A stretch of DNA of 64,000 nucleotides from an uncultured Thermodesulfobacteriota bacterium. Its GTDB lineage: Bacteria > Desulfobacterota > GWC2-55-46 > JADFVP01. Under the pieces are notes generated by a model that worked only from the letters and a program-made list of their open reading frames with translations, was not told the DNA's origin and did no database searches. A program made the translations under genes and the position numbers. The stretch is taken from NCBI GenBank assembly GCA_964510775.1, contig CAZEBZ010000003.1, positions 424 to 64,423 of the forward strand, read 5' to 3'. Position 1 is the first letter of the stretch. The number at the start of each line of letters is the position of its first letter. Shown piece by piece: positions 25,850 through 63,802 of this stretch.

Positions 25850-25965
25850 GGGCTCTTAACCCCTTTTACGCCTCATGGCGTAGGGCCTTGCGTCATACTG
25901 CAAGGCCCTACCATCAAAAAAAGTTATCATCAAAAAAACCTAACACAGCCCGAAATAAGTTGCAT

Positions 25966-27210
25966 ATGCGGCACTCTCATCTCTTTTTCACCGCAATCAC
26001 CGTTTTTTTTCTCCTCTTCACTACTTTCTCGGCAACATCTCAAGGAGCACAATGGCCTCCACGGATACGCTCCTTGCTCACGGCCCTTACCTACGTCAGT
26101 GAAGACCCCTCTGACTTTGGGGCAGAGACGAGCAAGAGCGACAAGACCCTCCTCAGTACATTCAAGCCCCGCATATTTATCGCCCCGGGCGGACGAAGGC
26201 CCGTTGATTTTTACGGATTTTATCTACCAAAAACCGCAGTAAAGAACGAGAAAGGGGCGATTGTAAAAAAAAATCCTACGAGGGCTTATCTAAAAACCAT
26301 TGAGCGAAATGCAGGCTTTTACCTCGATTATGAGGGCCCTGATAGGCCCTGTGAGGGTAGAGCCTGCGAGGGTTACGTAGGCACCGGATACGGCAGGGTC
26401 TATAGAGAGGACGCTCGCTTTTTCACAAAGGAGGGCGTAAGAAAAATACCCCTTACTATACTAAAATACAACTTCGCCTTTACTTACAGCGGCCTTCCCG
26501 CAGCTGTAGGGCAGTTGAAAGAACTGCCTCTTAGCCTCTTTATAGACCCGGCAAAAATTCATGAACTCGATATACACGGCGCCGTGCATATCGTACTAAA
26601 TGGACAAAAGAGACCCATCGCCCTGATTCTCGCCGAGCATAATTACTTCAGGACTTTTGTCTTTGGAGACAGTATCTCAAAGATGCCAAGAGACAAGCGC
26701 GTAAAAATATGCTTTGCCCAACGCTCAAACGAGCCCTATCCATGCCCTGCAGGGGCCGCTCCATTGAGGCGTCGCACAGTTGGCAGCCCCGCTGATATAA
26801 GTTACGTTATAAACGGCGGGGAAAAACCCTTTTTCTCAGGAGAGGACATTATCTACGGCCCAGAGTCCGGCGCGCAACAAGTGAAGTACGTACTGAAATC
26901 TCTACCAAAAAAAGACCCCCTCTACGTAAGCTGGATACCCCTTGGCAATAAAGAGAAGATCCTCTTTTACAAGAGTTACTACATACAAGGCCCGCCGGGC
27001 ATGGATATGAACACATGGCCCAAGAAGAAGAAATACTCTGATATTATGCAGTTCTGGTACTTTCGAGAGGACAGCAGCGAGGATGCCGCACTCATGGGGC
27101 AATATCTTCACACCCTAAGCGATGGAGATCTCAAGAGAGTGCTTGAGCATAACGGCGAAAGGCTTTATAATGATATCGCTATAGCAGAGCGCAAGGGCGG
27201 CAGAGACTAA
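25966..27210 (+). CDS. Hypothetical secreted/membrane-anchored protein
   Basis: The start is taken at MRHSHLFFTAITVFFLLFTTFSATSQG (a signal or anchor helix). No recognisable domain is present. It lies immediately downstream of the ArsS-ArsM fusion on the same strand. Confidence 0.5.
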   Translation: MRHSHLFFTAITVFFLLFTTFSATSQGAQWPPRIRSLLTALTYVSEDPSDFGAETSKSDKTLLSTFKPRIFIAPGGRRPVDFYGFYLPKTAVKNEKGAIVKKNPTRAYLKTIERNAGFYLDYEGPDRPCEGRACEGYVGTGYGRVYREDARFFTKEGVRKIPLTILKYNFAFTYSGLPAAVGQLKELPLSLFIDPAKIHELDIHGAVHIVLNGQKRPIALILAEHNYFRTFVFGDSISKMPRDKRVKICFAQRSNEPYPCPAGAAPLRRRTVGSPADISYVINGGEKPFFSGEDIIYGPESGAQQVKYVLKSLPKKDPLYVSWIPLGNKEKILFYKSYYIQGPPGMDMNTWPKKKKYSDIMQFWYFREDSSEDAALMGQYLHTLSDGDLKRVLEHNGERLYNDIAIAERKGGRD

Positions 27211-48531: not shown

Positions 48532-51273
48532 TCAGAGAGGTTCGTCGCCGGCCTCTCGGGCCTCGTCAATCCACTTCTCAACATGGAGCTCTAGGAGGCT
48601 CTTAAAAAATTCTCCTTCAGGGTTCAGCATCTCATATATACCGCGAGGCGGGTCGGCCTCAAAACCACGGAACACAAGCTCACCGGAGCGGTAAAAAATC
48701 TCGGCAAAAGTATTATTAGGGCCTGCGGTAAAGATAAATTCCATACGCTCCTGAGGGAGAAAAAAAGAATTTAGTATGCTCCCATGAAGACCTTCTCGCC
48801 CCGTTATCTTCCTGTAAAAAGTCTTATCTCCCCTGCTCTCCTTTATGTACGCAAAGAGGGCCTCATCGCTAAGTGCCTGGCCCTTGTTATATATATCCGT
48901 AATAGTAGAGATGAGCCTTAATGAAGAAAAAGACTCTCCGTCGATTATCTTATTAAAGTCCTTGAGGTAGTTCTCAGTAATCAGCCTCGTAAGGGCCTTG
49001 GCGTTAGATAATTTTCTTCCTGATATGAGTTTCTCAAAGGCGTGTTCCAGATCAGGGGGCATCCTCAGCGTATAGGCAGTATGGATATAGACATCAAAGG
49101 GGTACTCTATGTCCTTGTTTCTGCGCCTCTCTCTATCACCTGAGAGAAGTATCTCCAGATAGGCCTTAACCATTGTATTTCTAAAGGTGCCACGCGCCGA
49201 CTCGTTTATCTTCTCTCCTATGGATACGTTCACCGGGCCCTGATACCCCTTTATATGACCAAGCTCGATTATCTCGGCCCTCGCTCCGTAAGTTATAAAG
49301 AGCCCTGCCTCCATCTCACGCTTAATTGCAGCCGTAAGCTCATCCTTGTATACGCTCTCAAGGCGGCCTTCTTCCTCACCTATCTTGAGAATTGCCTCAG
49401 CAGAGTCATCAAGACCGTCATCAGTCTCAAGAATCATCTCCAGCCTCTTCCTCTTAAGGGCCTCTCTGCGCTCCTCGAATTTTTTATGAACCTCGTCCAT
49501 AACCTCCCTGCCGCTGCCGGGCGGAAGTCTCTGCTCCAGCTCACTGCCGGATTCCTCGATTATCCTTCGAATATCACGGGCCAGCGCCACAAGAGAGCGC
49601 ATGCCTCCGGAAAAAATAATAGCGTCTCCCGGAATATTAGTAAGCCTTATGCCCATCTCATCTTCTGAGAGCCCCATGCCATCGGCATAGCCCTGTGCAG
49701 CGTCAAGTATGGGTTTAAAAAAATACTCCTTCATGAAATCAGCCATAGCTACTTCTTTAATCTTATGCGTCTTACGGCTAAAGTCCTTCATATCAACAAA
49801 TAACTGACCTTCTTTTCTACTCTGCAGTATATTTATCATAGGCCGCTTATCCGTTGAAAAACGGTAAAGACGGCCCTTCATATATTCATCGCGGAGCATC
49901 TTATTCGCGAGTTCAAGTCGTCTATCTGAGAGTCTGTTCATCATAAGAGAGACGCTATCGCTCACCATGGCATCAAGGGTAGCGGCATAATAACCCTCTA
50001 CTACGGAGACAAGGGCCTCACGGCTCTGCTCTCGACCGCCACCTGCGATGCCTTTTAAGACAGACCTCTTCTTACTAAACTCAAGGACAAGACCTCGCAG
50101 CCCATTCAGTCTGTCAGTCCTCAATCTATCCTTTGAGACAACCTCCATTAGCGCCTCAATAGACCTTGCGAGCCTCAACGCATAAGGGCCGTCATTTAGC
50201 AGATTTGTAATAAGACGATCCTCGCTGTAGAGGTCAAAAAACTCTTTTCGAAGCTCCATATCAGGCACATCATATGCCGTCATATAATCAAGTATCTTCT
50301 CCCTGAAAGTCCCTATCTTTACCTGCTCTACGACTGTCTTCATCAGCCTCTTATCACTCTTTACACGCCTTACCCCCTCTTCCACAAGAAGGCGCAGAGA
50401 CTCTGTCTGTACGCTAAGAGGAACAAGATGAGAGGATAAAACCTCGAAGGTATGGCGGCAGATACGATATGGGTTATGAGAAGAGCCTAAGAGAGCGGAT
50501 TTAACGACTATGAAGTGCTCGGGTACAAAGGCCGCCCTCAAGACAAAGGCCACGCCTTTTTCATCAGACCAGGCGGCGGTGAGATCTCTAATGACAGCAG
50601 AAAAAACATTATAAAAACAGAGGCCCACAGAGAGATCCAGTTTGTCGTAACCAAGGCCTTTTACACGAAAGGTCTTAAGAGCCCGCTGATATTTTCTTAC
50701 AGTATTTACGAGCGCAAGAAGTGTCAGGTAGGAGGTCTGCTCCTGCAGACCGTTATACATTTCGTCACCTCGCGCCTTATTCATCATGCCCTTTAGCCAG
50801 GAGATAAACTTTGCGCCGCTCTCGCCGTGAGCGAACCAGGCATAAAGCACAGAGCTGTCAAGATAGGGGGTACTCTCAAGTATCCTCGCGGCAAGTTCTC
50901 TCTCAAAAGACTGTGCCACAAATATATCCAGCCTGCAGGTCTTCTCACGCAGATCCGGAGTAGCTACAAAAACAGTACTCTCACGATTATGCTCATCTTC
51001 TTTACTGGGAGCCTTCAAAGACTCGTAGCGTTTCTTAATAAGGGCCGCGAGCCCTTTTACCGCGGCCTCTACAATAGCCTCATCATCAGAGCCAAGATGG
51101 TAAGGCACCTTTAGCTCCGCTACGTTAAGGCCGTACTTGAACCTAAGAGACTTCGGAGACAATGTCCACAGCGATCCCTTGAGGACTGCCTCAAGGCGGT
51201 CCGGTAGGTCCTCAAAAAAATCTATCCGCTCTTTTGCATAATCAAAGTTCATAACAGGGTCGCAGCTCTCCAT
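48532..51273 (-). CDS. Large (913 aa) soluble hypothetical protein with a central class III nucleotidyl cyclase / GGDEF-like palm-domain motif set
   Basis: No TM helix or signal peptide. Ordered motifs are LFVDMKDFSRKT (aa ~491-502), IPGDAIIFSGG (aa ~547-557), and GLFITYGARAEIIELGHIKGYQGPVNVSIGEKINESARG (aa ~657-695). They parallel the cyclase-domain blocks FxDIxGFT, IGDAxMAVxG and GxxxGxxxxGxxG...GDxVNxASR. The flanking regions of about 490 aa (N) and about 215 aa (C) have no recognisable domains. Confidence 0.6.
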   Translation of the reverse strand: MESCDPVMNFDYAKERIDFFEDLPDRLEAVLKGSLWTLSPKSLRFKYGLNVAELKVPYHLGSDDEAIVEAAVKGLAALIKKRYESLKAPSKEDEHNRESTVFVATPDLREKTCRLDIFVAQSFERELAARILESTPYLDSSVLYAWFAHGESGAKFISWLKGMMNKARGDEMYNGLQEQTSYLTLLALVNTVRKYQRALKTFRVKGLGYDKLDLSVGLCFYNVFSAVIRDLTAAWSDEKGVAFVLRAAFVPEHFIVVKSALLGSSHNPYRICRHTFEVLSSHLVPLSVQTESLRLLVEEGVRRVKSDKRLMKTVVEQVKIGTFREKILDYMTAYDVPDMELRKEFFDLYSEDRLITNLLNDGPYALRLARSIEALMEVVSKDRLRTDRLNGLRGLVLEFSKKRSVLKGIAGGGREQSREALVSVVEGYYAATLDAMVSDSVSLMMNRLSDRRLELANKMLRDEYMKGRLYRFSTDKRPMINILQSRKEGQLFVDMKDFSRKTHKIKEVAMADFMKEYFFKPILDAAQGYADGMGLSEDEMGIRLTNIPGDAIIFSGGMRSLVALARDIRRIIEESGSELEQRLPPGSGREVMDEVHKKFEERREALKRKRLEMILETDDGLDDSAEAILKIGEEEGRLESVYKDELTAAIKREMEAGLFITYGARAEIIELGHIKGYQGPVNVSIGEKINESARGTFRNTMVKAYLEILLSGDRERRRNKDIEYPFDVYIHTAYTLRMPPDLEHAFEKLISGRKLSNAKALTRLITENYLKDFNKIIDGESFSSLRLISTITDIYNKGQALSDEALFAYIKESRGDKTFYRKITGREGLHGSILNSFFLPQERMEFIFTAGPNNTFAEIFYRSGELVFRGFEADPPRGIYEMLNPEGEFFKSLLELHVEKWIDEAREAGDEPL

Positions 51274-51547: not shown

Positions 51548-53407
51548 TTGCTAATCAAAAAAATCTTAAGAGCCAGGTATATCCTACCCTCTCTTGTCTT
51601 CATCATACCCCTTATCGTCTACTCCATAACCCTCATGGGAGGCTTTGTCTACGATGATAATCTACAAATAATCAGAAACCCCTGGATAAGGGACTTAGAT
51701 AATATCCCAAAACTCTTTGTCTCCTCGACTATGAGTTTTCTAAATGGTCAGCCTGCAAATACTTACAGGCCGGTATTCTACCTCGTGTACATGGCCGAGT
51801 ACCTCACCTTCGGGCTGAGACCATGGGCGTGGCACCTCGTCAACATACTCCTCCACTCCATGAACGCACTAATGGTTTATTTTCTCGCCTCTCTCTTCAT
51901 CACAACAGAAAAAAAACCAAGAGCTGATAATCGCGGCCCTTTAGCGCTTACCATGACAGCCCCCTTCATCGCAGGTCTTGTCTTTGCCCTCCATCCCATA
52001 AACAGCGAGGTAGTCTCATGGGCCGGAACCATACCGGAACTTATATTCACCTTGCTAGTACTCTGCGCCTTTACCCTTTACATCCTTGCCGAGAGAGCGC
52101 CGCAAAGAGCTGCGGCATACCTCGCATGCTCTGCTGCCTGCTTCTCAGTGGCGCTATTCTCAAAAGAGACGGCCATGGCCCTTATTATTATCATACCGCT
52201 CTATGAGTTTACGAAGAGGGGTTGGCAGAGTCTTAGACGCTGGAAAATTTTTATAATTTACCTTATACCAGCTGTAATATATATGGTCATGAGAACCTCT
52301 GCCCTTGGCGGAATGACGCAGATGAGTCTTATTAAGATGACCTTCTACGAGGGGCTGCTGAACGTATTCCCGCTCATTGCGAGATACCTTGGTAAACTCA
52401 TCTTACCCATAAATCTAAGCATCATCTACTCCTTTACTCCTGTCCATTCCGCCTTTGAGATGATGTTTATCATTGGTCTGATAGCCTGCGCGGCGTTTGC
52501 AGCCTTAATATTGTTACTGAGGAAAAAAAGAAAGGAGATCTTTTTTCTCATCTGGATACTAATCCCCCTGCTGCCCGTTCTCTACATGCCTATACTCTCA
52601 GTGGGAGGCTTTGCCGACCGCTATCTATATCTCTCCACCGCCGGCGCCGCCGTCTTCATAGCTCTTATGGTTTCTCGAATGTATAAGAGGCAGCAGAGCA
52701 GTAAAAGACAAAAAACAATTCTCATCGCAACCCTGACGCTTATTCTCGTCATATACTCTGCTGCCTCCATAAAGCGGGCAATTATCTGGAGAAGCGACTA
52801 CTCCCTCTGGTCAGATACCGTTATAAAATCACCGAAAAGCCCAAACGCCCTCTATAACCTTGGATGGGCCCTACAGAGCAGAGGCGGAACGGAGAACCTT
52901 AAAAAAGCCCTCAAAGTTTACAAGGAAACGATCCGGGTAAAACCCAATAAGGAAAACGCACATTACAATGCCGCACTTATTTATCAGAAGATGGGCGATT
53001 ACCCTAATGCCCTTATTCACTACAGAGCATCCTTACGTTTAAAACCTTCCAACGCCACTACCCCATATAACATCGCAATGTTATACCAGAGCATGGGAGA
53101 TATATCTATGGCCATAAAGTTTTACAACCTTGCCATAAGCATAAATCCGCAGTACGAAGATGCCCACTACAACCTGGGCTGGACATATCAAAAGATGGGC
53201 GATTACTCTAATGCCCTTATTCATTTAAAGGAAGTACTTAGACTCAACCCACGCAGCACAGACGCCCATTACATGATAGGCAACATATACGATAACAGGG
53301 GTGAGAGGGAAAAAGCTCTTAGCGAGTTTAGTAAGGCCGTTACCGCGGATCCCTCGTACGGCCCTGCGAAGTCTGAGTTAAAGCGCCTCCTTGACAAAAC
53401 AAGATAA
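51548..53407 (+). CDS. TMTC/PMT-like membrane glycosyltransferase-family protein with a C-terminal TPR array (DUF1736-type)
   Basis: TTG start. The N-terminal polytopic region has the GGFVYDD motif and about 10 TM helices. The C-terminus has at least 5 TPR repeats (ALYNLGWALQSRG, AHYNAALIYQKMGDYPNA, TPYNIAMLYQSMGDISMA, AHYNLGWTYQKMGDYSNA, AHYMIGNIYDNRGEREKA). Confidence 0.8.
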   Translation: MLIKKILRARYILPSLVFIIPLIVYSITLMGGFVYDDNLQIIRNPWIRDLDNIPKLFVSSTMSFLNGQPANTYRPVFYLVYMAEYLTFGLRPWAWHLVNILLHSMNALMVYFLASLFITTEKKPRADNRGPLALTMTAPFIAGLVFALHPINSEVVSWAGTIPELIFTLLVLCAFTLYILAERAPQRAAAYLACSAACFSVALFSKETAMALIIIIPLYEFTKRGWQSLRRWKIFIIYLIPAVIYMVMRTSALGGMTQMSLIKMTFYEGLLNVFPLIARYLGKLILPINLSIIYSFTPVHSAFEMMFIIGLIACAAFAALILLLRKKRKEIFFLIWILIPLLPVLYMPILSVGGFADRYLYLSTAGAAVFIALMVSRMYKRQQSSKRQKTILIATLTLILVIYSAASIKRAIIWRSDYSLWSDTVIKSPKSPNALYNLGWALQSRGGTENLKKALKVYKETIRVKPNKENAHYNAALIYQKMGDYPNALIHYRASLRLKPSNATTPYNIAMLYQSMGDISMAIKFYNLAISINPQYEDAHYNLGWTYQKMGDYSNALIHLKEVLRLNPRSTDAHYMIGNIYDNRGEREKALSEFSKAVTADPSYGPAKSELKRLLDKTR

Positions 53408-53635: not shown

Positions 53636-54469
53636 TTGCTAAACAACCCTAAAAGCTGGAAGGATACATTGAACCAATTTGTTGAGAGACTAACGGCCAT
53701 GTTCTCGAAGATAATCGCCGGTACTGTATCAAGGGAAGAAGGCGCCATACTTATTAACCATCTCGTTAAGGAAAGCAGTATTGAGACAATAAGCGCGCTC
53801 ACATACCTTATAGAGAACCCGCCGCGCAATGTATTCCAGAAGACAGTGCTCCATACAATAGCCCTGGCAAGAAACAAGGCCCTTTTCAAGATTATGGCCG
53901 AGAGCATTCACAGTCAAGATGAGGATGTATCCCTTCTGGCCGCCTCAGAGCTTGCGCGCCTTAGAACAGATGGAGCTAAAAAAACCCTTATAGATAACCT
54001 TGACAACGAAGTTTACCATGTAAGAAAGAGCGCTGCTGTGGCTCTGGCCGAAGATTACGGAGATGATGGGCTTAACGTGCTAAAAGAACATATTCTCTCC
54101 CATGAAGAACCCTTTTACCGCGCCACCTCGGCACAAGGGCTTGTCTTTGCAGGAGACAAGGGTATAGATATGCTCTTTGCCATTGTTCAGACAGATAAAC
54201 CCGGCCCGGCCTTCTCATCAGTAGAGGCCCTCACAGGTTTTGAGGGTGAAATTAAAGAAAATCTCATACCGGTAGCCATTGAGGCACTCATGAGAGCTGG
54301 AGACAGAAGAAATATTCCCCTTGTTGTGGAATTATTGAGGCTGCTGGCCCTCTGCAAGAAAGAAGCCCTTAAGTACGAGAGCTTTATCTCCGCCTTTTCC
54401 GATGACAACTCCGAGTCCATACGACTGGAAGCTCAAAAAACCCTCCATACCATCAAAAGAAGCCGCTAA
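53636..54469 (+). CDS. HEAT-repeat (PBS-lyase-like) protein
   Basis: 277 aa with repeated helical-pair motifs of the form LxxLxxDxDxxVRxxAAxAL (EDVSLLAASELARL, NEVYHVRKSAAVALAEDYGDDG, EEPFYRATSAQGL, SESIRLEAQKTL). Confidence 0.65.
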   Translation: MLNNPKSWKDTLNQFVERLTAMFSKIIAGTVSREEGAILINHLVKESSIETISALTYLIENPPRNVFQKTVLHTIALARNKALFKIMAESIHSQDEDVSLLAASELARLRTDGAKKTLIDNLDNEVYHVRKSAAVALAEDYGDDGLNVLKEHILSHEEPFYRATSAQGLVFAGDKGIDMLFAIVQTDKPGPAFSSVEALTGFEGEIKENLIPVAIEALMRAGDRRNIPLVVELLRLLALCKKEALKYESFISAFSDDNSESIRLEAQKTLHTIKRSR

Positions 54470-54657: not shown

Positions 54658-56670
54658 CTAATAAAAAATCCTTGCGAACTTACGTGAAGCACTAAAATAT
54701 ATGCGGTTATCGGTATAATCAGTTGAAGACGAATTAGTTATGGAATAAGTGTGATTCATAGAGAATCTCCAGGCCCTCAATTGGTAAGTTAGATCATTGC
54801 CCACTTCAAAGTGGCGGGAAAAAGTATCTTCAACAGTAAAGTCATCATACCGTGTCCTAACAACCCAAGTCATTCGCCGGAGAATAGGCCTGCTGTAACT
54901 CAAATTAGAATAGATAAGACGTGATTTATTAGAGCCTGTTCTAAATGTTGTCATTGTTATGTTGTAACCAAGGTCGGCGTTAAGGTTACCCTTAAATATC
55001 TTACGAGTATAGTGCGCCGAGATATCCCCTGTATTGGAACGGTCAAAACCTGTAATCTCATCAAATAAAACTCTGCGTTCCAACTCAAACTCCCCGCTAA
55101 TTCCTTTTATGGGGTTTGTCCTCACTGTAAAAATTGCATCCTCAGATGTATTCTTGAGGTTCTCATGAGCCACGGTACTGTTCTCTTTTTCATAGGATCC
55201 ATTGACAGAAATATACTTTTGCCAAAATCTGCTGTCAAAACTAATGTTATAGTTGCTGTTTTTTTCCTTAACCTGACCGGAAGTAGACTTCAGTACGGCA
55301 AAGAAAGACCCGCCAACATCAAAGAAGAAGAACCTGTTAAAATCTATTCTGTTAAAGTGAAGAGAGCCGTTGTGGGTTATACCCTGGCCGCCTATGTCAT
55401 TATTATCAACACTTTCTTTATTAAAACGCGTATTCAAAATATAACCAAGACCATAACTTGACCTAAACTTAAAGCGTGAAAAAGTCCTGTAATAATTCAG
55501 ATTAGTGTTGGTACTCAATGACTTGCCATCAGTAAGGTTACGATTAGCCGGATTAGAGGAGCTCGACTCTACAAGAGCTAACATAAAACCTTCAGAGACA
55601 GAAAGATGATCTGTCAGGTTATAGGCAAAAGTACTGCTGGCCCTTGTGCGAGTATCGTCCCGCGAGGTAGTAGGACTCTCGGAGAGATCCTTACTTACAT
55701 TTAATTTAAGGTTTAGATTAACTTTCTTCGAGACATGATAATCCAGAGCCCCGTCGTATGAGGTACGCGTAGATCTCGTCTCTACAATATCAGTACTCTC
55801 ATGGTGAAGTCTGTGTGACTGATGAAAGAAACGACTTGGGTCAGATAAGAGCGACATATCTACATTAAATCTTTTTTCCTGACGACTATTCGTCTGAGTA
55901 TTCTCTAAATTCGAGCGTAATACATCGAGACCAAAGACAGAGTGTCTCGATAGCTGAGTAGAGTTTCCAAAAGTAATGGCACTGCTGCGTAAAGATTCTC
56001 CTGTATTTAAAGTATCAAGGTCTATGTCGTAAGTTAAAGTATTCTTGGTAGGACCATACTCTTTATCGGCCCTATATTGTATACTTATTGTCTTGTCACT
56101 ACCGCCGGTACCGCCCCTATCTGCGTATTGCCTCTCGACAGTAAGACTCATCACAGGCAAGGTAACAAACTTACCGGACCAGGCAAAACCAATAGTGGTA
56201 ATATTCGTTGAAGGAGCGGAAGATCCATTAATAGTACTCCAGCTTGTATCCCTGCTGCCAAAGAGTGTTAGAGGTATACGGCTTCGAGGTATTAGGGTAG
56301 TATTTACGTCAAGAAAGAGGCTATTAAAAGTAGTATCCGTAGTATCCGTGGAATTTGCGCTTAAGATATCGAAGTTCTCACTCCTTCTATCGTACCTTAC
56401 ATTGACATCATATATCATGAGCAGCCGGGATATTGCATTACCATAGAGGGTAAAATCATAATTTTGCCCAAAAGATGAGGTAATCTCGTCACTCTGAGTT
56501 GAATTCCTATCATTAGCCGTACGCTTCTCATGGGAATAATCATAGAAGACCGAGCCTACAATATTAGTATGGGCGTAAGGATCCACCTTAACACACCAAC
56601 CACTCGATGGGACAAAGATAGCCGCCAAGGACAGGATTAATACTAAGCATGCCCTTCTTATGTTTATCAT
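54658..56670 (-). CDS. Outer-membrane beta-barrel protein (putative porin component)
   Basis: Signal peptide MINIRRACLVLILSLAAIFVPSSGW. The 670-aa sequence is S/T/N/Y-rich with alternating amphipathic beta-strand character and a C-terminal aromatic residue (…RIFY). Confidence 0.65.
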   Translation of the reverse strand: MINIRRACLVLILSLAAIFVPSSGWCVKVDPYAHTNIVGSVFYDYSHEKRTANDRNSTQSDEITSSFGQNYDFTLYGNAISRLLMIYDVNVRYDRRSENFDILSANSTDTTDTTFNSLFLDVNTTLIPRSRIPLTLFGSRDTSWSTINGSSAPSTNITTIGFAWSGKFVTLPVMSLTVERQYADRGGTGGSDKTISIQYRADKEYGPTKNTLTYDIDLDTLNTGESLRSSAITFGNSTQLSRHSVFGLDVLRSNLENTQTNSRQEKRFNVDMSLLSDPSRFFHQSHRLHHESTDIVETRSTRTSYDGALDYHVSKKVNLNLKLNVSKDLSESPTTSRDDTRTRASSTFAYNLTDHLSVSEGFMLALVESSSSNPANRNLTDGKSLSTNTNLNYYRTFSRFKFRSSYGLGYILNTRFNKESVDNNDIGGQGITHNGSLHFNRIDFNRFFFFDVGGSFFAVLKSTSGQVKEKNSNYNISFDSRFWQKYISVNGSYEKENSTVAHENLKNTSEDAIFTVRTNPIKGISGEFELERRVLFDEITGFDRSNTGDISAHYTRKIFKGNLNADLGYNITMTTFRTGSNKSRLIYSNLSYSRPILRRMTWVVRTRYDDFTVEDTFSRHFEVGNDLTYQLRAWRFSMNHTYSITNSSSTDYTDNRIYFSASRKFARIFY

Positions 56671-56823
56671 AGCGGTTGTCCTTGTTTAAAAGGCAGAAAG
56701 AGAGATACAAGACCTATTGTCCTGCATTGAGAGGCAGTCCGACCTTATGCACTCATTAGAGCTTAAAATAGAAGAAACTACAAAATCACAACAATGTCTT
56801 TTCAGGTCCCATAAAAGAAGAAA

Positions 56824-57645
56824 TCATTTAACGCACCTGAAACCAACGTCATTATAGGCCCCCTTGGGGTCAGCGATACTGCGAAAAGGCGCAGAGACAT
56901 ATACCTGCATGGTGTAGTGCCCTATTCCACCCCAGCCGCCGCCCCGCAGCACCTTGAACCTCTCGCCGTAATCCTTGTCATCATAGGTATTGCCGGGATA
57001 CTGTCCGTACCAGTCCGCCGTCCACTCAATCACGTTGCCGGCCATATCAAGGACGCCGTAAGGACTCGCTCCCTCGGAAAACTTTCCAACAGCCGTAGTT
57101 CCGCCGTACTTACCGAGTGTGTTTACCTTCTTTAAATCAAAATCATCGCCCCAGGGAAAGATACGTCCATCAGTGCCTCTGGCGGCCTTTTCCCACTCCT
57201 GCTCGCTTGGAAGCCGCGCGCCCCGCCACTTGCAATACTCAGCAGCGTCGAACCAGCTCACAGAGGTAACGGGAAAATCGCCCTTACCCTCAGGAACCTT
57301 TCCTTGCGGCCAGTTTGCCGGCGCTTTTCTCGAAGCAGCGGCGATAAACTTACTGTAAGCGGCATTTGTTACCTCAGTTCTATCAATATAAAATTCCTTT
57401 AAAGAGACCTTTCTCTCCGGGGACTCGTTTGCGAACCATGGTTTTCTCGAACCATACTGCACGGCCTTGGCGTCAGTATCTATCCTGTTGCTCCCCATAA
57501 TAAACTCTCCTGCGGGGATAAGCACCATATTCTCAGGAATACTCTTTGCAGCTTCCTTACACCCTGAAAAAGCCAGAGGAAGAATAAGAAGAATCATTAA
57601 GAAAAAATGCTTTACTACGCTAATATTTCCAGCTCTCAAGGCCAT
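56824..57645 (-). CDS. Formylglycine-generating enzyme (FGE-sulfatase / SUMF1) domain lipoprotein
   Basis: The start is taken at MALRAGNISVVKHFFLMILLILPLAFSGC (lipobox). The FGE-domain blocks are FIMGSN, RKVSLKEFYIDRTEVTNAAY, GARLPSEQEWEKAARGTDGRIFPWG, RGGGW and YNDVGFRC. Confidence 0.85.
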   Translation of the reverse strand: MALRAGNISVVKHFFLMILLILPLAFSGCKEAAKSIPENMVLIPAGEFIMGSNRIDTDAKAVQYGSRKPWFANESPERKVSLKEFYIDRTEVTNAAYSKFIAAASRKAPANWPQGKVPEGKGDFPVTSVSWFDAAEYCKWRGARLPSEQEWEKAARGTDGRIFPWGDDFDLKKVNTLGKYGGTTAVGKFSEGASPYGVLDMAGNVIEWTADWYGQYPGNTYDDKDYGERFKVLRGGGWGGIGHYTMQVYVSAPFRSIADPKGAYNDVGFRCVK

Positions 57646-57731
57646 ACCTCCATGATAATACAAATATTTTTTCACAGAACAAAGCATGAGGAGTGAGCTA
57701 CATTGCTCTAAAAAAACACGCCCTCTTTGCC

Positions 57732-58811
57732 CTACTCCTTATCATCGGCGGCGCACCTGAACCCGAAGTTATTATTCGCCGTATTAGGGTCAAAAAATAT
57801 CCTGTTATAACTCGGTGCGCTTATGCCGCATTTATAATAAGTACAATCATACCACGAACCGCCTCTCAATACCTTAAAGCGCTCGCCGTAGTTCTCATCG
57901 GGGTGCTTGTTGCCCGGGTATGGTTTGAACCAGTTATCCACCCACTCCCAGGCGTTACCGGCCATATCAAAGATACCATAAGGGCTTACGCCATCGGGAA
58001 AGCTGCCTACAGGCATGGTATTGCCAAAACCCAACTGTGGGGTATTGGCCTTTTTTCTGGAAAACCTCTCGCCCCATGGAAAGGCCCTGCCGTCAGTTCC
58101 CCTCGCGGCCTTCTCCCACTGATCTTCACTTGGAAGGCGCTTACCCTCCCATCTGCAAAAAGCATTGGCATCGCTCCAACTCACATAAGTAACAGGGTGG
58201 CCCGCCTTTACCAGCGGCGGCCTTCCATTGCTCCATGTGCGAGGCTGAGCATGACCTGTAGCCCGGACAAAAGCGGCATAACGCTCAACAGTTACCTCGT
58301 ACTTATCTATATAAAAACCCTTTACGTATTTTTTATGCTCGGGCTGAACTTTTGGCCACCAGTCATTAGACCCCTTGGTAAAATACCCTTCAGGTACATA
58401 TACCATGCCCTTCCACTTGTCTGTCTTCTTCGAAAGAATCTTCTTGGCCTGCATACTCTTCTTTGGCACTGGAGCGGCAGCCGAGGCAACGAGTTCAGGC
58501 TCTGGCGTACCGGTGTGCTTCCAGGCGTCCTTACCCTCATAATCGCGGTACTTTTTATTAACAGTAATATATCTCTCGCTTAGACCGGGACCGTGGCATG
58601 AGAAGCATGAGGGCTCCCGCGTATAATCAATAGAGTATTTTTTATCTCCATTATGGCATTTTTCACAGCGAGGCTCACCTGTCTCCAGGTCATAATCACC
58701 TGAAGCGGCAGGAAGTGGTGGAAGGGCGAGACTTCTGCCCGCAAAAGAGAGGACAAAGATAAATATCCAAAGACAGCTCATTAATAATGTATATCTTCTT
58801 CTCATATTCAC
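57732..58811 (-). CDS. Dihaem cytochrome c domain fused to an FGE-sulfatase (SUMF1) domain
   Basis: Signal peptide. The two CxxCH motifs are CEKCH and CFSCH. The C-terminal FGE blocks are FTKGSN, VKGFYIDKYEVTVERYAAF, GKRLPSEDQWEKAARGTDGRAFPWG, RGGSW and NNFGFRC. Confidence 0.8.
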   Translation of the reverse strand: MNMRRRYTLLMSCLWIFIFVLSFAGRSLALPPLPAASGDYDLETGEPRCEKCHNGDKKYSIDYTREPSCFSCHGPGLSERYITVNKKYRDYEGKDAWKHTGTPEPELVASAAAPVPKKSMQAKKILSKKTDKWKGMVYVPEGYFTKGSNDWWPKVQPEHKKYVKGFYIDKYEVTVERYAAFVRATGHAQPRTWSNGRPPLVKAGHPVTYVSWSDANAFCRWEGKRLPSEDQWEKAARGTDGRAFPWGERFSRKKANTPQLGFGNTMPVGSFPDGVSPYGIFDMAGNAWEWVDNWFKPYPGNKHPDENYGERFKVLRGGSWYDCTYYKCGISAPSYNRIFFDPNTANNNFGFRCAADDKE

Positions 58812-59335
58812 ATTTTACCTGTTTTTCTTAACTCGGCGGCCTCAAGCTCGCGGCCTCGCCTCTGGAGCTCTCTTACGTATGCCAAGACATTCCATATATC
58901 TTCGTCGCTAAGTATATGCCCCCACATGGGCATTACCATGGCCTCGCCGCCTATCTTCCTCTTTACGCCATCACGAATGGACTTAAAGAGCTTTTTGTCT
59001 GACTTTAACATCCGCTTTTTGTCATGGACAAAGTCGGCGGGATGCGGCGTAATAGCCGTACCAACAGGGCCGTCTCCATAACCCTTTGTTCCGTGACAAT
59101 AATGGCAGTGTCTCTCATAGATAAGCTTACCAGCGGCCGCGTCGCCGCGGCCCCCTGTTTTAGCCTCCAAGGCTCCATTGACAGCGCCAAAGGCATCGGG
59201 CTGCCAGGGAGGCAAAGCAAAGCAGACTGAGAGAATAAGGGCTAGGGACAGCAAGCCCCACGGCCTTCCCGCACTCCTTATCTTACAGCCCATCTTGCAA
59301 TGAATACTCTTCATATTCTTCCTTATATGGCTCAA
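58808..59335 (-). CDS. Monohaem class I cytochrome c
   Basis: Signal peptide, then CHYCHGTKGYGDG with a downstream Met ligand region (MVMPMWG). It overlaps its neighbours by 4 nt on both sides. Confidence 0.8.
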   Translation of the reverse strand: MSHIRKNMKSIHCKMGCKIRSAGRPWGLLSLALILSVCFALPPWQPDAFGAVNGALEAKTGGRGDAAAGKLIYERHCHYCHGTKGYGDGPVGTAITPHPADFVHDKKRMLKSDKKLFKSIRDGVKRKIGGEAMVMPMWGHILSDEDIWNVLAYVRELQRRGRELEAAELRKTGKM

Positions 59336-60363
59336 ATTTTTCTGAGATACTCCACCTTGGCTTTTTTACGAAGACCATCTACCCAGGAGTTCGTAAGACG
59401 ATTATATTCCTTTGACTGGAGTTCAGACCTTAACTTCTTCTGATTAAGTTCCGAGAACTTTATCTGTTTCGCAGGGCGTTTACCCTCAAGTCTGAAAAGA
59501 TGCACACCATAGATACTTAAGACCGGCGCTGAGATTTCGCCGACCTTGAGGCTTGAGACTGCGCTCTCAACATCAGGGAGAAGACTTCCCACATGGGCCC
59601 AGCCCATGTCTCCGCCCTTAGAGGCATCAGCGGCCTTGGAATGTTTCTTGGCAATAGCCGCAAAATCAGCTCCATCTTTAATCTTTTTCGAGAGCGCAAG
59701 TATGTCTTTTCTTGCCTTATTCCAGACCCGCTGACTTGCCGAAGGCTCAACCTTTACAAGTATTCCTCTAAGATGAAGTTGAGCGGGCACCATGAACTTA
59801 TTAAGGTTCTTATTATAATACTCTCTCATATATTTTACTGTGACTAAGGCCTCGGCCTCTTTCTTTAACTTCTTTCTCGCCTTCTCACTCTCTCTCTCTA
59901 CTACAAAGGTAAAGTTAATGGCCTTTCTGAGACCTTCTATAGTTAGGTTACTTCTCTTTAGAACCTTCTCCAGAGAATCACCCGGGGCAAGTTTCTTCTT
60001 GAGCGCCTCCAGCCTCTCCTTAAACTCCTTATCCCCAATACCCTTCACATTTTTAGCAACAGCATCATTATAAATTATTATGTTAGTGATAAGCTTCTCA
60101 AGGGTCTCTTTACGAATAGCCTTGTACCGCCTGTCAGTTACACTAGTATGAAAACTCTGCATTGGAAGGACGTTATTAACGGCGATACGGAGATTTTCCT
60201 CTGTAATATCCTCGCCGTCTACACGCGCCACGGCATCCTTCTCTGAGCGTATAAGAGGCAAGTCACCGGTCTTACCCTCGGCAAATATAACCGAGGCGCT
60301 CATAAGCAAGAACACAAGTAGCGCCGAGGCAGTAAGAACAGGCCGTTTTAGTGATATTGTCAT
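59332..60363 (-). CDS. Periplasmic peptidyl-prolyl cis-trans isomerase, SurA/PpiD-like (parvulin domain)
   Basis: Signal peptide, SurA-like N-terminal chaperone region, and a parvulin core (LRGILVKV ... GGDMGWAHVGSLLPDVESAVSSLKVGEISAPVLSIYGVHLFRLEG). Confidence 0.8.
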   Translation of the reverse strand: MTISLKRPVLTASALLVFLLMSASVIFAEGKTGDLPLIRSEKDAVARVDGEDITEENLRIAVNNVLPMQSFHTSVTDRRYKAIRKETLEKLITNIIIYNDAVAKNVKGIGDKEFKERLEALKKKLAPGDSLEKVLKRSNLTIEGLRKAINFTFVVERESEKARKKLKKEAEALVTVKYMREYYNKNLNKFMVPAQLHLRGILVKVEPSASQRVWNKARKDILALSKKIKDGADFAAIAKKHSKAADASKGGDMGWAHVGSLLPDVESAVSSLKVGEISAPVLSIYGVHLFRLEGKRPAKQIKFSELNQKKLRSELQSKEYNRLTNSWVDGLRKKAKVEYLRKI

Positions 60364-60554
60364 CTATTTTTCCTCCCTTTGAATTGCATATTTTGTTTGC
60401 TGCGTAGAGACTGCAGACCTAATTGTACAGTACTATTTTATGAATGTTAAATAAAATAAGTGTTATATGAGAATTAAAAATTTTTAACGGGAAAAACGCG
60501 GAGTTATGCATTGATGGTAAATATTAGATAAAGACATTTAAAGAGGCTTATAAT

Positions 60555-60592
60555 AAAAAAAAGAGGGCCGTAAAAGCGGCCCTCTTTTTTGT
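60555..60592 (-). terminator. Rho-independent terminator hairpin (AGAGGGCCG-TAAAAG-CGGCCCTCT) flanked by A and T tracts
   Basis: A perfect 9-bp stem with T5 downstream and A8 upstream, placed 19 bp beyond the stop of the tetrahaem cytochrome gene. It could function bidirectionally. Confidence 0.7.
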
Positions 60593-60610
60593 CTTAAGTG
60601 TTGATGCAAC

Positions 60611-61618
60611 TTACTTATCGTGGCAAGTTCTGCAGACTCCGGAACCTGTGTTGCCGCCGACTCTTCTGAGGAAGAGACCGTCACTCTGGCCTACACCGGT
60701 AAGGAAGGTTGCACCAGCAGTATCATGCTTATAGTCAGGATAGCTTCTGTTGCTGAAGTGCGGGTCATGACAGCTTACGCACTCAACCTTGCTGTTTCTG
60801 AGGAGATCGGAAATGGTACCAGTGGAGCTAATCTTACCATTTACGTCCCACCTGTTCTGTTGCATCCAACCAAAGAGGGTTGTATCAGCGAGGCTTGCAG
60901 AGCTAAGACCGGAAGAGAGGTCGATATCTGCGATTGTTGTGCCTGGAGCCCTCAAGGATGCAAGACCGGCGGTCTGGCTTGTTACGTAGTTTACGCCTAT
61001 TGGATGGTCGTTGGAGAGATCCTGACCGATATCAACCCTTGTTCCAAAGAGAGTGTTGACATGGAGGCCTGTACCAAGAGGAGCACCCTCATCAAAGAGT
61101 GTCCAGCCCTGTGACGCACCACCAGCAGTAACGCCGCCGTTACCAGGAGCGTTTACGAGGTTATCAAGGGTTGTAACACCATCATGACAGCTGAGGCAGG
61201 CGAATGTCGTACCGCTCACATCTGAGGCGGCGATTGTGGTACCACCAAGCGTGGTGCCGTAAGGTGTAAGGTTGGCGCTTGTTGTAGAGAGACCTCTGTT
61301 CCAGAGCGGACCAGCGTTAGTGGCCTCAGTGTGGTGAGGTGTATGACAGAATACACATATCTGTGTAGTACCTGTCACACGGCCGAAGGTTGCGCTGGCG
61401 GTGTCCTGGTCCATCGTTGTAAGGTGGGAACCAAAGGCGCCGAGGTTATGCCTTGACTGTACAACACCGTTGGCGGTATCACCTACGGCGTAACCGGTTC
61501 CGCTAACATCCGCTGATGTTGGTGTAGCTACGGCCATGGTACCTGTAGCGGCGTTGGAGGTGCCTGCATAAAAGAGGCCCATTGTTGCGACTATGGCGAC
61601 GGCTAAAAATCTTTTCAT
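60611..61618 (-). CDS. Tetrahaem c-type cytochrome, Gly/Thr-rich, secreted
   Basis: Signal peptide MKRFLAVAIVATMGLFYAGTSNA. The four CxxCH motifs are CVFCHTPHH, CLSCHDG, CVSCHDPHF and CRTCHDK. The composition is low-complexity and G/T/S-rich. Confidence 0.8.
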   Translation of the reverse strand: MKRFLAVAIVATMGLFYAGTSNAATGTMAVATPTSADVSGTGYAVGDTANGVVQSRHNLGAFGSHLTTMDQDTASATFGRVTGTTQICVFCHTPHHTEATNAGPLWNRGLSTTSANLTPYGTTLGGTTIAASDVSGTTFACLSCHDGVTTLDNLVNAPGNGGVTAGGASQGWTLFDEGAPLGTGLHVNTLFGTRVDIGQDLSNDHPIGVNYVTSQTAGLASLRAPGTTIADIDLSSGLSSASLADTTLFGWMQQNRWDVNGKISSTGTISDLLRNSKVECVSCHDPHFSNRSYPDYKHDTAGATFLTGVGQSDGLFLRRVGGNTGSGVCRTCHDK

Positions 61619-61839
61619 GTCTTGCTCCTTTTCATTTTCAGTTGTCTATAGTTGATACGTTGGAGAGAAGATTTTTTTACACAAAAAAAACCTTCGACAA
61701 CTGCCCTGCATATCCGGGCAGTATCAAGGCATCCATCGCCTCTGGTTGTAACGGAACCCGCCATGAGCCCCTAAACCATTCTAACTTTAACCTTATTATA
61801 CAGCAAAATTAAGAGGTGTCAAGGAAAAAATTAATGTTT

Positions 61840-61880
61840 TTTTAATAAAAACCTGACCGCATTACAATGCGGTTTTTACT
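61840..61880 (-). terminator. Candidate terminator hairpin (ACCGCAT-TACA-ATGCGGT) with flanking T tracts
   Basis: A 7-bp stem at 61856-61873 immediately after the NHL gene stop, with TTTTT on both strands nearby. Confidence 0.4.
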
Positions 61881-62943
61881 TCTTTCCCTTGGCCTTCTCG
61901 CCCTCTCCCGTGCCGGCGGCGGCCTCGCGCGCCTTATGCTTCTCGCCTAAAAACTCATAGACGTTTACACGTTCATTCCAGGAATCAACTACGTATATAT
62001 AGTCATCTTTATCAACAGCTATGCCAGTTGGCAGGATCATATGCCCTCTATCGTTGCCGTAGCCGCCAAAAGCCATTAGAATAGCCCCCTCTTCATCGAA
62101 TATCTGTACATTATTAAAGGCCGCGTCAACGACATAGACATGGCCCTCGCTGTCAATGGCCACGCCCTTGGGACGGGCAAACTCACCGGGCAGATCACCG
62201 AACTTACCATAACCGTAAAGAAACCGACCCTTCACATCAAAGACTTCCACACGCGCGTTCATGGTGTCAACGACATAAATATTACCTTTTTTGTCAACAG
62301 TAATATTAGAGGGAAAATTAAAACTGCCCTCTTCTCTACCTCTGTAGCCTATGGTCTGAAGATATTTAAGGGTCTCAAGGTCAAAGACCTGTACGTTGTG
62401 CAGGTGAGTATCCACGACGTAGAACCTGTTGTTGGCGCTATCCACGGCCATGCCCGTTGGCTGCTTAAAGGGTGTCTCAGGGGTGAGATACCTCATGAGC
62501 CTGCCTTTTGTATCAAGGACAGCCACCTGATCCGTCCTCGTATCAGAGACAAAGGTGCGTCCCTTGTCATCTATCGTTACCCCTATGGGCTTATGAAATA
62601 TCTTCGTCCCAAGGGCGCTCAATGAAGAAAACTTGTTATTTGGCAGATCAAAGATAAAGACATCACCGCGGCCAGTATCAGTGACAAAGACCCTTCCGTC
62701 TTTATCAACGCTTATGCCGTTGGGCTTTCTCATATTAATAGATGTATTGGCTCCGATAAGGGCGCCTGCGATGGCCGATGAACCCGTAAGATCCGATTTT
62801 CCGTGAAATGACCTAACAAACTTTATCCTCGGCGGGTTCGGCTTTGCCGGCCATACGAGGTCAGGCAGTTCCTTTGGCGGGGCGCAGCTTATAAGGAGTA
62901 ACGGTACGGCAAACAGAAGTATAGCCTTAAGTGTCCTGGTCAT
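61876..62943 (-). CDS. NHL-repeat six-bladed beta-propeller lipoprotein
   Basis: Lipobox LLISCAPP. It has repeated NHL-type blades (GVTIDDKGRTFVSDT, GMAVDSANNRFYVVDT, ITVDKKGNIYVVDT, GVAIDSEGHVYVVDA, GIAVDKDDYIYVVDS). Confidence 0.8.
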   Translation of the reverse strand: MTRTLKAILLFAVPLLLISCAPPKELPDLVWPAKPNPPRIKFVRSFHGKSDLTGSSAIAGALIGANTSINMRKPNGISVDKDGRVFVTDTGRGDVFIFDLPNNKFSSLSALGTKIFHKPIGVTIDDKGRTFVSDTRTDQVAVLDTKGRLMRYLTPETPFKQPTGMAVDSANNRFYVVDTHLHNVQVFDLETLKYLQTIGYRGREEGSFNFPSNITVDKKGNIYVVDTMNARVEVFDVKGRFLYGYGKFGDLPGEFARPKGVAIDSEGHVYVVDAAFNNVQIFDEEGAILMAFGGYGNDRGHMILPTGIAVDKDDYIYVVDSWNERVNVYEFLGEKHKAREAAAGTGEGEKAKGKK

Positions 62944-63172
62944 ATTCTTTCTTCTCCGATGAGGATAAATAATTCAGTTCATCTCAGAACCGTTTTTTTC
63001 TTATTTACAAAGTGGTATTAGAGAGGCCTCAAAAGCCTGTCACATCAAAAACCAGCCTGAATTCTACTACGAGGCAATTATTTAGTCAAGTGCGTCAATA
63101 CAATCACAGGTCACTATATAAAAATCTTATCTTACACAGCTCCAAGGGGTCTCGGCAGGGCGGATAAAAAGA

Positions 63173-63802
63173 CTACTTCCAGCTCTCTTTTTCAAGGGAG
63201 CGGCCTTTTAATATGCTGTGACAGCGAAGGCAATTCGCACGAGGCCAGAATGTAAAGGCTACCTTGCCATGACACCTTCCGCACCACTTGCCCTTCCATA
63301 TCTCATCCATGGTAATAGGATTTGCGCCTGTCTCGGCAAGAAAGATCTTCGGGTGACAGTTGCTGCATTTGAGCCAGTATGTATGTATGGAGTGAGGGAA
63401 GATAACATTAGCCATCAAAGGAACCTTGGCCTCGATAAATATATTCAGGTCAAGAGGCGGTTTTTCCTTGTCCTTTGGGTCAAGCGTGCCCTTTGGATTT
63501 ATAAAACCTCCCATAACAGAGGCCGTCCAGTTAACACGGCCCTCTGTGTCCTTTGGAAGGACATTCAGGGCGGGCGGCTCGCCGGGCAGGGTCTTCATAG
63601 AGGCCCTCTGCACCACACTGCGGTAAAAGCGGTCGTAGTAATCCGTCATGTGTCCGCCGGCCTTCTCTACCTGATCGTCTTTTGTCCCCTCATTAAAAGC
63701 AAGAAGGGACTGCGCCTCTTTGCCGCACCCCGACAACAGCAGGACAGAGACCGCGGCAACGACAAGGAACCATGAGATTTTTTCTCTGGCGAAGACCCTC
63801 AC
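63173..63802 (-). CDS. Trihaem c-type cytochrome lipoprotein
   Basis: Signal/lipobox LLLSGCGKE. The three CxxCH motifs are CSNCHPK, CGRCHGK and CLRCHS. Confidence 0.75.
   Translation of the reverse strand: MRVFAREKISWFLVVAAVSVLLLSGCGKEAQSLLAFNEGTKDDQVEKAGGHMTDYYDRFYRSVVQRASMKTLPGEPPALNVLPKDTEGRVNWTASVMGGFINPKGTLDPKDKEKPPLDLNIFIEAKVPLMANVIFPHSIHTYWLKCSNCHPKIFLAETGANPITMDEIWKGKWCGRCHGKVAFTFWPRANCLRCHSILKGRSLEKESWK

Follow-up and report, generated by a model that had tools for sequence, protein, structure and literature searches.

A probable OmcE-type extracellular cytochrome locus with a predicted 32-strand barrel and a formylglycine-generating enzyme-like module in an uncultured Thermodesulfobacteriota-like bacterium

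A 64,000-nucleotide stretch of contig CAZEBZ010000003.1 (assembly GCA_964510775.1, positions 424 to 64,423 of the forward strand; the whole of this analysed stretch is referred to below as the window) from an uncultured Thermodesulfobacteriota bacterium contains a cluster of eight minus-strand genes (54658-63802) that combines c-type cytochromes with a large predicted outer-membrane beta-barrel, a SurA-like peptidyl-prolyl isomerase (PPIase), an NHL propeller lipoprotein and two proteins with the fold of the formylglycine-generating enzyme (FGE). We consider it highly probable that this locus encodes an OmcE-type extracellular cytochrome (nanowire) system of a Thermodesulfobacteriota-like bacterium; the explanation of the whole that we favour, with more reserve, is such a nanowire system complemented by an FGE module that would act as a redox adaptor at the barrel. 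The presence of an OmcE-family tetrahaem cytochrome together with the PPIase, NHL, trihaem cytochrome and barrel genes, and the absence of MtrA/OmaB-type and MtrC/OmcB-type cytochromes, point to a filament-type cluster rather than to a porin-cytochrome conduit. Thus, the extracellular electron transfer setting proposed in a preliminary description of this DNA, made from the letters alone, is supported, whereas the likeness to porin-cytochrome conduits suggested there is not.

The assignment hinges on the 335-aa product of 60611-61618, which by sequence homology we place in the OmcE family of nanowire-type tetrahaem cytochromes and which is presumed to be the filament subunit. A phmmer search against the PDB matched this protein to the OmcE nanowire bundle of Desulfuromonas soudanensis WTL (9YUQ; chain 9yuq_N, E=1.7e-15) and to the OmcE filament of Geobacter sulfurreducens (7TFS; chain 7tfs_A, E=1.7e-13). 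All 8 cysteines of the protein sit within its four CxxCH motifs (residues 88, 141, 280 and 329) which, like four further histidines, H57 (SRHNL), H95 (CHTPH), H205 (NDHP) and H287 (CHDPH), show no variation among 11 homologues from related loci (designated here by L and a number). Because OmcE homologues have been described as possessing four CxxCH motifs and four other haem-ligating histidines (OmcE literature), this signature supports membership in the OmcE family, which is large (3906 matches to OmcE-like proteins, mostly with four CxxCH motifs). The extra histidines of the OmcE family serve bis-His ligation, one of them acting across subunits. The same extra-histidine motifs are found in a 229-aa OmcE-like homologue from locus L122 that is 31% identical to the window protein. 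In the preliminary description, the protein appeared as a Gly/Thr-rich tetrahaem cytochrome; the composition (Thr 14%, Gly 13%) and the four haem motifs stand, and the matches to 9YUQ and 7TFS now correct its identity. Upstream of the gene lies a sigma-70-like promoter, TTGACA-16-TATAAT (61795-61822, minus strand), identified by consensus match only (12/12), and directly 3' of it a strong intrinsic-terminator-like hairpin, its 14-bp stem followed by a T run (60590-60557, minus strand), the terminator that had already been noticed after the tetrahaem gene; this combination is as expected of an abundant structural subunit.

The cytochrome gene is embedded among genes for proteins that would be suited to the folding, export and electrical connection of such a subunit. 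The first gene of the cluster (63173-63802) encodes a 209-aa c7-type cytochrome with three CxxCH motifs (PF14522, 9e-14; TIGR04257, 5.6e-19, 68 bits) and a lipobox (LSGC), probably a membrane-tethered periplasmic electron carrier, and is syntenic in L003, L086, L088, L089, L093, L098, L109, L118 and L119. It is followed by the gene for a 355-aa lipoprotein (61876-62943; lipobox LISC) with an NHL beta-propeller (PF01436, 1.8e-34; DUF5128 six-bladed propeller), a homologue of which, 40% identical, follows a related barrel in L121, a locus without FGE genes. Downstream of the tetrahaem gene is that for a 343-aa SurA-like periplasmic PPIase (59332-60363), presumably a folding chaperone, with a PPIC-type rotamase domain (PF00639, 3.3e-20) and the SurA_N_2 and SurA_N_3 domains; it is located upstream of the monohaem cytochrome gene in nearly all loci and beside the related barrel gene in L121 as well. 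The class I monohaem cytochrome c (58808-59335; PF13442, 1.3e-12; PF00034, 5.4e-12) comprises 175 aa in the longest open reading frame (ORF) and 168 aa in the public gene call, and its gene lies directly upstream of that for the dihaem cytochrome c::FGE fusion (57732-58811, 359 aa) in every locus with enough sequence. An FGE-fold lipoprotein (56824-57687, 287 aa) and the putative barrel protein (54658-56670, 670 aa) complete the cluster.

The 670-aa protein has no match among Pfam and NCBIfam families. An AlphaFold2 model built from a 16-homologue alignment, with a mean predicted local distance difference test (pLDDT) score of 82.6, is all-beta, and DSSP assigns to it 32 consecutive strands after the signal-peptide helix, with the chain ending in ...ARIFY. 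The protein is accordingly predicted to be an outer-membrane barrel of 32 strands, in agreement with the beta-barrel originally proposed. The structural matches of the model are generic outer-membrane barrels only, including SprA, and TonB-dependent receptors and LptD match it equally well (TM-scores 0.2-0.3). Among 1.84 billion representative proteins, a profile search retrieved only 194 relatives. The family is small and unannotated; the 596-aa barrel encoded in the L101-type loci discussed below is related to it (hhalign probability 91%, E=1e-6).

The eight ORFs were confirmed on the minus strand between 54658 and 63802, and Pfam and NCBIfam agree with the domain types initially given to them (apart from the 670-aa protein without a family match), as does the count of ten CxxCH motifs (3 in the trihaem, 4 in the tetrahaem, 1 in the monohaem and 2 in the dihaem protein). 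Four-nucleotide overlaps had been reported for the genes from PPIase to FGE; they occur at two junctions only, PPIase/monohaem (TTGA) and monohaem/dihaem-FGE (GTGA), where both require non-ATG starts (TTG and GTG), and not between the two FGE genes, which are separated by 44 nt. The public gene calls use downstream ATG starts, which replace the overlaps by gaps of 17-26 nt. The cluster runs past the end of the window: a second OmcE-like tetrahaem gene is present upstream of the trihaem gene on the contig (L001, 3726-4703), encoding a protein of 325 aa that is 40% identical to the product of 60611-61618. Since this gene lies beyond window position 64000, the cluster is cut by the window end and comprises at least 14 haem motifs. 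The extra copy is also present in L088, and JGI contig Ga0256727_1000132 is a counterpart of the window.

Among published clusters, that of the window most resembles the cytochrome-filament clusters of the omcE, osc and uet type. A minimal omcE cluster encodes OmcE, a large beta-barrel and two each of multihaem cytochromes and beta-propeller lipoproteins, followed in many cases by glycosyltransferase and TPR genes (bioRxiv 10.1101/2025.10.22.684050), and OmcE homologues have been reported in Thermodesulfobacteriota and Nitrospirota (omcE literature, 2025). With the omcE clusters of Desulfuromonadia the window shares a homologous tetrahaem cytochrome with four CxxCH motifs and four extra histidines, small multihaem cytochromes, a beta-propeller lipoprotein and an adjoining large beta-barrel, and with those of the glycosylation type also TPR and membrane proteins nearby. 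The 32-strand barrel and the NHL lipoprotein are the very companions, a barrel and a propeller lipoprotein alongside, by which omcE clusters are recognised in the published work. The window differs from these clusters in the longer subunit (by about 100 aa), in having one propeller gene instead of two, and in the SurA-like PPIase, and the module formed by the monohaem cytochrome, the dihaem-FGE fusion and the FGE lipoprotein is not mentioned there.

Two further systems resemble the locus by role or by protein kind. In the uet cluster of 'Ca. Tenderia electrophaga', genes for a tetrahaem cytochrome, a PPIase, a barrel, c7 trihaem cytochromes, a cupredoxin, NHL proteins and an undecahaem cytochrome have been described (bioRxiv 10.1101/2022.05.06.490989). 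The tetrahaem - PPIase - barrel order of uetABCDEFGHIJ, its c7 trihaem cytochromes and its NHL proteins have counterparts here, so that all five kinds of protein are present, whereas in the window three genes are inserted between the PPIase and barrel genes, the host phylum differs, and 32 strands are predicted for the barrel against 28 in UetC. Neither a protein with at least five haems (UetJ-like) nor a cupredoxin (UetF-like) was found in the window or in the 10 kb upstream on L001. In the osc cluster of G. sulfurreducens, which serves OmcS, OscH has been assigned to folding, OscEFG to secretion and OscD to morphology (PMC13194489, citing Shen et al. 2025). The resemblance lies in the roles, namely a folding factor, channel-like secretion proteins and a morphology factor around a filament cytochrome, as far as that secondary account goes; the subunit is the hexahaem OmcS there and a tetrahaem OmcE-like protein here, and FGE-fold proteins are not reported in that account. 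OscH is said to contain a prolyl isomerase and OscD to be propeller-like.

The cluster is conserved far beyond the window. In related loci, the order c7 trihaem - NHL - OmcE-like - PPIase - monohaem - dihaem::FGE - (fused MFS/spermidine synthase) - FGE lipoprotein - barrel - (270-aa TPR protein) is followed by genes for a HEAT-repeat protein and then a TPR membrane protein, both on the opposite strand, and then a protein of about 900 aa, and this order recurs at 40-70% protein identity in many uncultured genomes, including a closed 2.75-Mb genome labelled Thermodesulfobacteriota and two 409-kb contigs. A metagenome scan seeded with the alignment of the dihaem domain alone yielded 29 loci, and an independent start from OmcE homologues recovered the same cluster twice. 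Across about 35 loci, the monohaem, dihaem-FGE and FGE lipoprotein genes are found together wherever the contig reaches far enough, and in most loci (L114 being an exception) the barrel gene and those for the HEAT and TPR proteins come next; 19 loci, some of them possibly near-duplicates, contain the fusion as well as the barrel. The labels of the hosts are Thermodesulfobacteriota, 'Deltaproteobacteria' and Nitrospirota. Hence the dihaem-FGE fusion and the remaining genes of the cluster are co-conserved as a unit in many genomes, the neighbourhood conservation for which the preliminary description had recommended a check. The two bracketed genes are absent from the window: that for the 'fused MFS/spermidine synthase' (NF037959, 223 bits), situated between the two FGE genes of most relatives, and that for the TPR protein of about 270 aa after the barrel are found in L003 (10986-12611 and 15602-16411, respectively) and also in L006, L086, L087, L093-L098, L104, L109, L118 and L119, and L088 has no spermidine-synthase gene and keeps the TPR protein.

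Loci that depart from this order show which parts are separable. L100, L101 and L111 are rearranged, lack the PPIase and have the order cytochrome - NHL - OmcE-like - 596-aa barrel - NHL - monohaem - dihaem::FGE - FGE lipoprotein - Fur, so that the module adjoins OmcE-type genes in two different gene orders. In L009 (685-6812, from a metagenome-assembled genome labelled Thermodesulfobacteriota), the gene for a COX1-like protein of divergent sequence (PF00115, 4.8e-17) and that for a UbiA-family prenyltransferase directly precede the module. Conversely, two loci have no FGE genes: L121 encodes glycosyltransferases, a TPR protein, a SurA-like PPIase, a barrel, an NHL homologue, a decahaem cytochrome and ResB/CcsA, and L122 an NHL protein, the 229-aa OmcE-like protein, a barrel and more cytochromes and NHL proteins, both barrels being distant homologues of that of the window. 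Taken together, the rearranged, module-only and FGE-less loci indicate a core of barrel, OmcE-like cytochrome and propeller (plus PPIase), with the three-gene module as an accessory that joined this core in one large lineage.

The two FGE-fold proteins of the module are paralogues of different types. The FGE domain of the fusion ('type C'; PF03781, 2.6e-55), preceded by two N-terminal CxxCH motifs, has true FGEs as its nearest solved relatives, human FGE being the best (E=4e-29 by sequence, 1e-39 by profile), followed by ToxD, pFGE and CalU17. In the loop that is catalytic in FGE it contains a pair of cysteines spaced as Cx4C, in the motif GGSWYD-C-TYYK-C-GISAP, which is invariant in 33 aligned homologues; GGSWxDCxxxxCG[IL]S is found in 117 of the 120 best homologues of the fusion, all 120 of which have the two CxxCH motifs, and is lacking from generic FGE-domain proteins. 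The FGE lipoprotein ('type H'; PF03781, 1.5e-54; lipobox FSGC) shows 47% identity to the corresponding domain of the fusion, has no cysteine in the loop, where a conserved GHY is found instead, and matches CalU17 and ToxD best in the PDB, with FGEs next. A check of the catalytic cysteine pair, suggested at the outset, thus gave a divided result, with no pair in the lipoprotein and, in the fusion, a Cx4C of ambiguous register. The loop of human FGE reads C336-HRSY-C341-YRYR-C346 (counted back from the C-terminus), and HMMER sets the Cx4C against C341/C346 with low posterior probability; the alternative register, on C336/C341, needs fewer gaps and fits the replacement by Ala, in the fusion, of C235, the disulfide partner of C346. 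The HRSY stretch is absent from the fusion, which retains the 'GNAWEW' motif (Ca-site and Trp299 equivalent). The AlphaFold2 model of the fusion (mean pLDDT 59.7) scores below 50 in both the Cys loop and the haem domain and, for that reason, is unusable for fixing the register. L011 (9866-10888) encodes a dihaem-FGE fusion without Cx4C and with the GHY loop of the lipoprotein type, so the haem domain has been joined to both paralogue types, and in L008 (labelled Nitrospirae) a haem-less FGE protein with the Cys pair accompanies an FGE lipoprotein. His303 (HPDENYG) was considered as a distal haem ligand of the fusion and dropped, being not conserved in L009.

As in SUMF1 and SUMF2 (FGE and pFGE), a Cys-bearing protein of PF03781 fold, with Cx4C in the catalytic loop, is thus paired with a Cys-less paralogue, with the differences that the fusion is periplasmic, has an N-terminal dihaem c domain, lacks HRSY and shows an ambiguous Cys register. 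A second parallel concerns the type IX secretion system (T9SS), in which the giant barrel SprA/Sov has a PPIase subunit and the FGE-fold lipoprotein PorK/GldK forms a ring at the inner face of the outer membrane. These three kinds of part recur in the locus, the analogy being a functional one only; PorL, PorM, PorN and PorV are missing from the locus, and the cargo would be a cytochrome without the T9SS C-terminal domain. Weak matches of the FGE proteins to GldK (TIGR03525; scores of 88.6 and 77 bits, where the family cut-off is 350) and to PorK structures were obtained, the GldK scores being no better than those of matches to EgtB or SenA.

With these parallels in mind, the following course of events can be envisaged. 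The OmcE-like subunit would be exported by Sec, acquire its haems in the periplasm, be kept assembly-competent by the PPIase, and be threaded through, or anchored in, the 32-strand barrel, to polymerise outside the cell via inter-subunit His-haem ligation. The trihaem lipoprotein and the monohaem cytochrome may carry electrons between the inner-membrane chain and the base of the filament. The two FGE paralogues might form a heterodimer in the manner of SUMF1 and SUMF2, tethered by the lipoprotein at the barrel mouth, on the periplasmic side of the outer membrane, and the dihaem domain, possibly with a Cu(I) or thiol site at Cx4C, might pass electrons to the filament base or take them from it; the scaffolding role would resemble that of the PorK/GldK lipoprotein beneath the SprA barrel of type IX secretion. 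This redox adaptor dimer at the barrel mouth, drawn by analogy, is a tentative suggestion to which we give distinctly less credence than to the OmcE-type system itself.

Only slightly less plausible than the adaptor is the possibility that the dihaem-FGE protein is a working oxidase, in which the monohaem and dihaem cytochromes supply electrons to a Cu(I) bis-cysteine site for O2 activation of the kind known from FGE, with a protein, peptide, small thiol or sulfide of the filament system as the substrate and the Cys-less paralogue as a regulatory or targeting partner. The near-invariance of Cx4C in the catalytic loop, the retained 'GNAWEW' motif, and the true FGEs as nearest solved relatives favour this possibility, as do the preservation of the Cys pair in the haem-less relatives with a lipoprotein paralogue (L008) and the O2-related setting of L009, where the module follows the COX1-like haem-copper oxidase subunit and the UbiA-family gene. 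FGE requires an external reductant, and a built-in electron supply would fit this need. Against an oxidase speak the HMMER pairing of the cysteines with C341/C346 instead of C336/C341, the L011 fusion without the Cys pair, the low confidence of the loop model and the hosts, which are presumed, from taxonomy labels only, to be anaerobes. Moreover, no CxPxR motif is present in 11 cluster or flanking proteins, and the exported proteins of the cluster contain, outside their signal peptides and lipoboxes, cysteines only in the haem motifs and in the FGE-fold proteins, so that classical Cys-to-formylglycine maturation of a cluster protein is unlikely. In a more elaborate version, which we regard as rather improbable, a 'wired' Cu/O2 or thiol oxidase, fed through its own c-type haems, would act on the extracellular filament or be powered by it. 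If true, it might install a modification or cross-link for the assembly or anchoring of the filament or, alternatively, be the catalytic end-point or entry-point for filament electrons, and this would give the FGE fold a new function, with cytochromes as the physiological electron source for FGE-type chemistry.

The porin-cytochrome arrangement of the MtrCAB/Pcc type, originally proposed for this locus with cytochromes inside the barrel and a catalytic FGE unit attached, appears improbable. It shares with the locus an outer-membrane barrel encoded together with adjoining c-type cytochromes for electron transfer across the envelope, and the tetrahaem cytochrome has a sub-threshold match to the MtrC/MtrF domain (PF22113, 21.7 bits against a cut-off of 30). 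Nevertheless, searches of Pfam and NCBIfam revealed no MtrA/DmsE or OmaB match and no periplasmic cytochrome with at least eight haems in the cluster, where such conduits have a cytochrome of the MtrA/OmaB type with 8-10 haems, and no surface lipoprotein of the MtrC/OmcA/OmcB type beyond that sub-threshold match and another to TIGR03507 (17.8 against 209 bits). The largest cytochrome of the cluster has four haems and belongs to the filament family, and the barrel, with 32 predicted strands as opposed to 20-26 in these conduits (26 in MtrB), is no closer to them than to TonB-dependent receptors and LptD. Finally, we reject the reading of the FGE genes as ordinary sulfatase-maturation enzymes that are beside the cytochromes by inherited gene order only: membership in PF03781 and the long synteny, housekeeping neighbours included, of many loci from related lineages would agree with it, but the fused dihaem c domain requires the FGE domain to lie in the periplasm and links it with electron transfer, the module stands beside OmcE-type genes in a second, rearranged order (L101, L111), one paralogue has no Cys pair, the cluster offers neither a CxPxR client nor a spare cysteine, and no sulfatase was detected in the domain scan (Pfam, NCBIfam) of all ORFs of at least 180 aa in the 64-kb window, in line with the preliminary description, or in any gene table of the related loci, which makes this reading extremely unlikely. 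The FGE module is not a sulfatase maturase.

Several observations weigh against the OmcE-type nanowire system with an FGE adaptor and temper our confidence in it. The subunit exceeds the solved OmcE proteins in length by about 100 aa and has an insertion between haems 2 and 3, and its polymerisation outside the cell is deduced from homology only. The barrel, PPIase and propeller of the window are likened to those of Geobacter and Tenderia by protein kind, and ten distant relatives of the barrel that were looked up are all unnamed or 'hypothetical protein' and derive from metagenomes. The module occurs in L009, with a second copy of the FGE lipoprotein gene and no OmcE or barrel gene nearby, and among housekeeping genes in L011, again without OmcE or barrel, so its function need not concern the filament; in L114, there is no barrel within 5 kb of it. 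Relatedness among the lineages that contribute most of the loci means that inheritance rather than selection may account for part of the 20-kb synteny. The place of the FGE proteins at the barrel is a proposal made from the genes, and the near-invariant Cx4C would suggest chemistry rather than pure scaffolding.

Beyond the barrel gene, three neighbours of the cluster are conserved as well. The gene for a cytoplasmic 277-aa HEAT-repeat protein without a signal peptide (53636-54469, plus strand; PF13646, 2.4e-11) is present after the barrel in all long loci, and that for a 619-aa polytopic membrane protein with C-terminal TPR repeats (51548-53407, plus strand; TPR families) is syntenic in most loci. 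The N-terminal motif 'GGFVYDDNLQ' of the latter recalls what we take to be a feature of TMTC/PMT-type GT-C glycosyltransferases; its N-terminal 420 aa have no match in Pfam or the PDB, and the identification as a glycosyltransferase was not retained, so we make no claim in this respect. If the protein were a glycosyltransferase, this would fit glycosylation of the Thr/Ser-rich subunit. A 913-aa protein (48532-51273, minus strand) beside the cluster, with neither a signal peptide nor a match in Pfam or NCBIfam, has homologues, 38-63% identical, at the same position in L003, L087, L088 and L089. Upstream of the cluster, outside the window, relatives carry a conserved trio of genes for a phosphoribosyltransferase, a PilZ-domain protein and a MinD/ParA-like ATPase with an N-terminal domain of RomY type (L003, 1595-4231; L086, without the PilZ gene; L089, L093, L098, L109, L118 and L119), which may hint at control by cyclic di-GMP or at control of polarity.

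The remainder of the window consists of housekeeping genes (IleRS, ValRS, EF-G, TopA, UvrB, HemA, DprA etc.), among which a few groups deserve mention. At 859-3712 (minus strand) lies a group of genes for haem supply and the maturation of cytochromes, which share the contig with the cytochrome cluster; they encode glutamyl-tRNA reductase (HemA), a cytochrome c assembly protein of the CcsA type and an NAD-binding protein resembling sirohaem synthase. At 11006-11746 (minus strand), a PilZ domain is fused to a response-regulator receiver, and 27393-28859 (plus strand) encodes a receiver-domain protein whose long C-terminal tail is Pro-rich (cornifin-like). A 616-aa fusion of a radical S-adenosylmethionine (SAM) domain with a class I SAM methyltransferase (23999-25849, plus strand) is followed by a 456-aa ORF without a family match (25840-27210). 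A further FGE-like protein in an oxidase/cytochrome setting could exist in Tenderia, in the cbb3-oxidase region of which a 'serine threonine protein kinase', ALP51736.1, is encoded among monohaem cytochromes and truncated CcoN genes (bioRxiv 10.1101/2022.05.06.490989, Figure 2B legend); FGE-fold proteins are often deposited under this name (e.g. PDB 5NXL, 7SPQ).

OmcE-type clusters and their spread beyond Geobacter have already been published, and the locus as a whole is of a known kind. In a literature search that was not exhaustive, we found no description of the module, of its systematic association with OmcE-type genes or of the 32-strand barrel family, and no work in which FGE-fold proteins are associated with multihaem systems or with extracellular electron transfer, in keeping with the earlier remark that an FGE-type module was undescribed in such a role. 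The passage of nanowires across the outer membrane, their assembly and their electrical connection to the periplasm are named as an open question in current work. The present observations indicate that a large group of uncultured bacteria, as judged by the source labels, carries an OmcE-type system with features undescribed in model organisms, namely a predicted 32-strand barrel family and a separable module of monohaem cytochrome, dihaem::FGE fusion and Cys-less FGE lipoprotein. This module represents a testable candidate for the missing link between periplasm and filament or for a maturation enzyme, and the natural fusion of an FGE-like domain with c-type haems bears on the question of what reduces FGE-type copper sites in cells.

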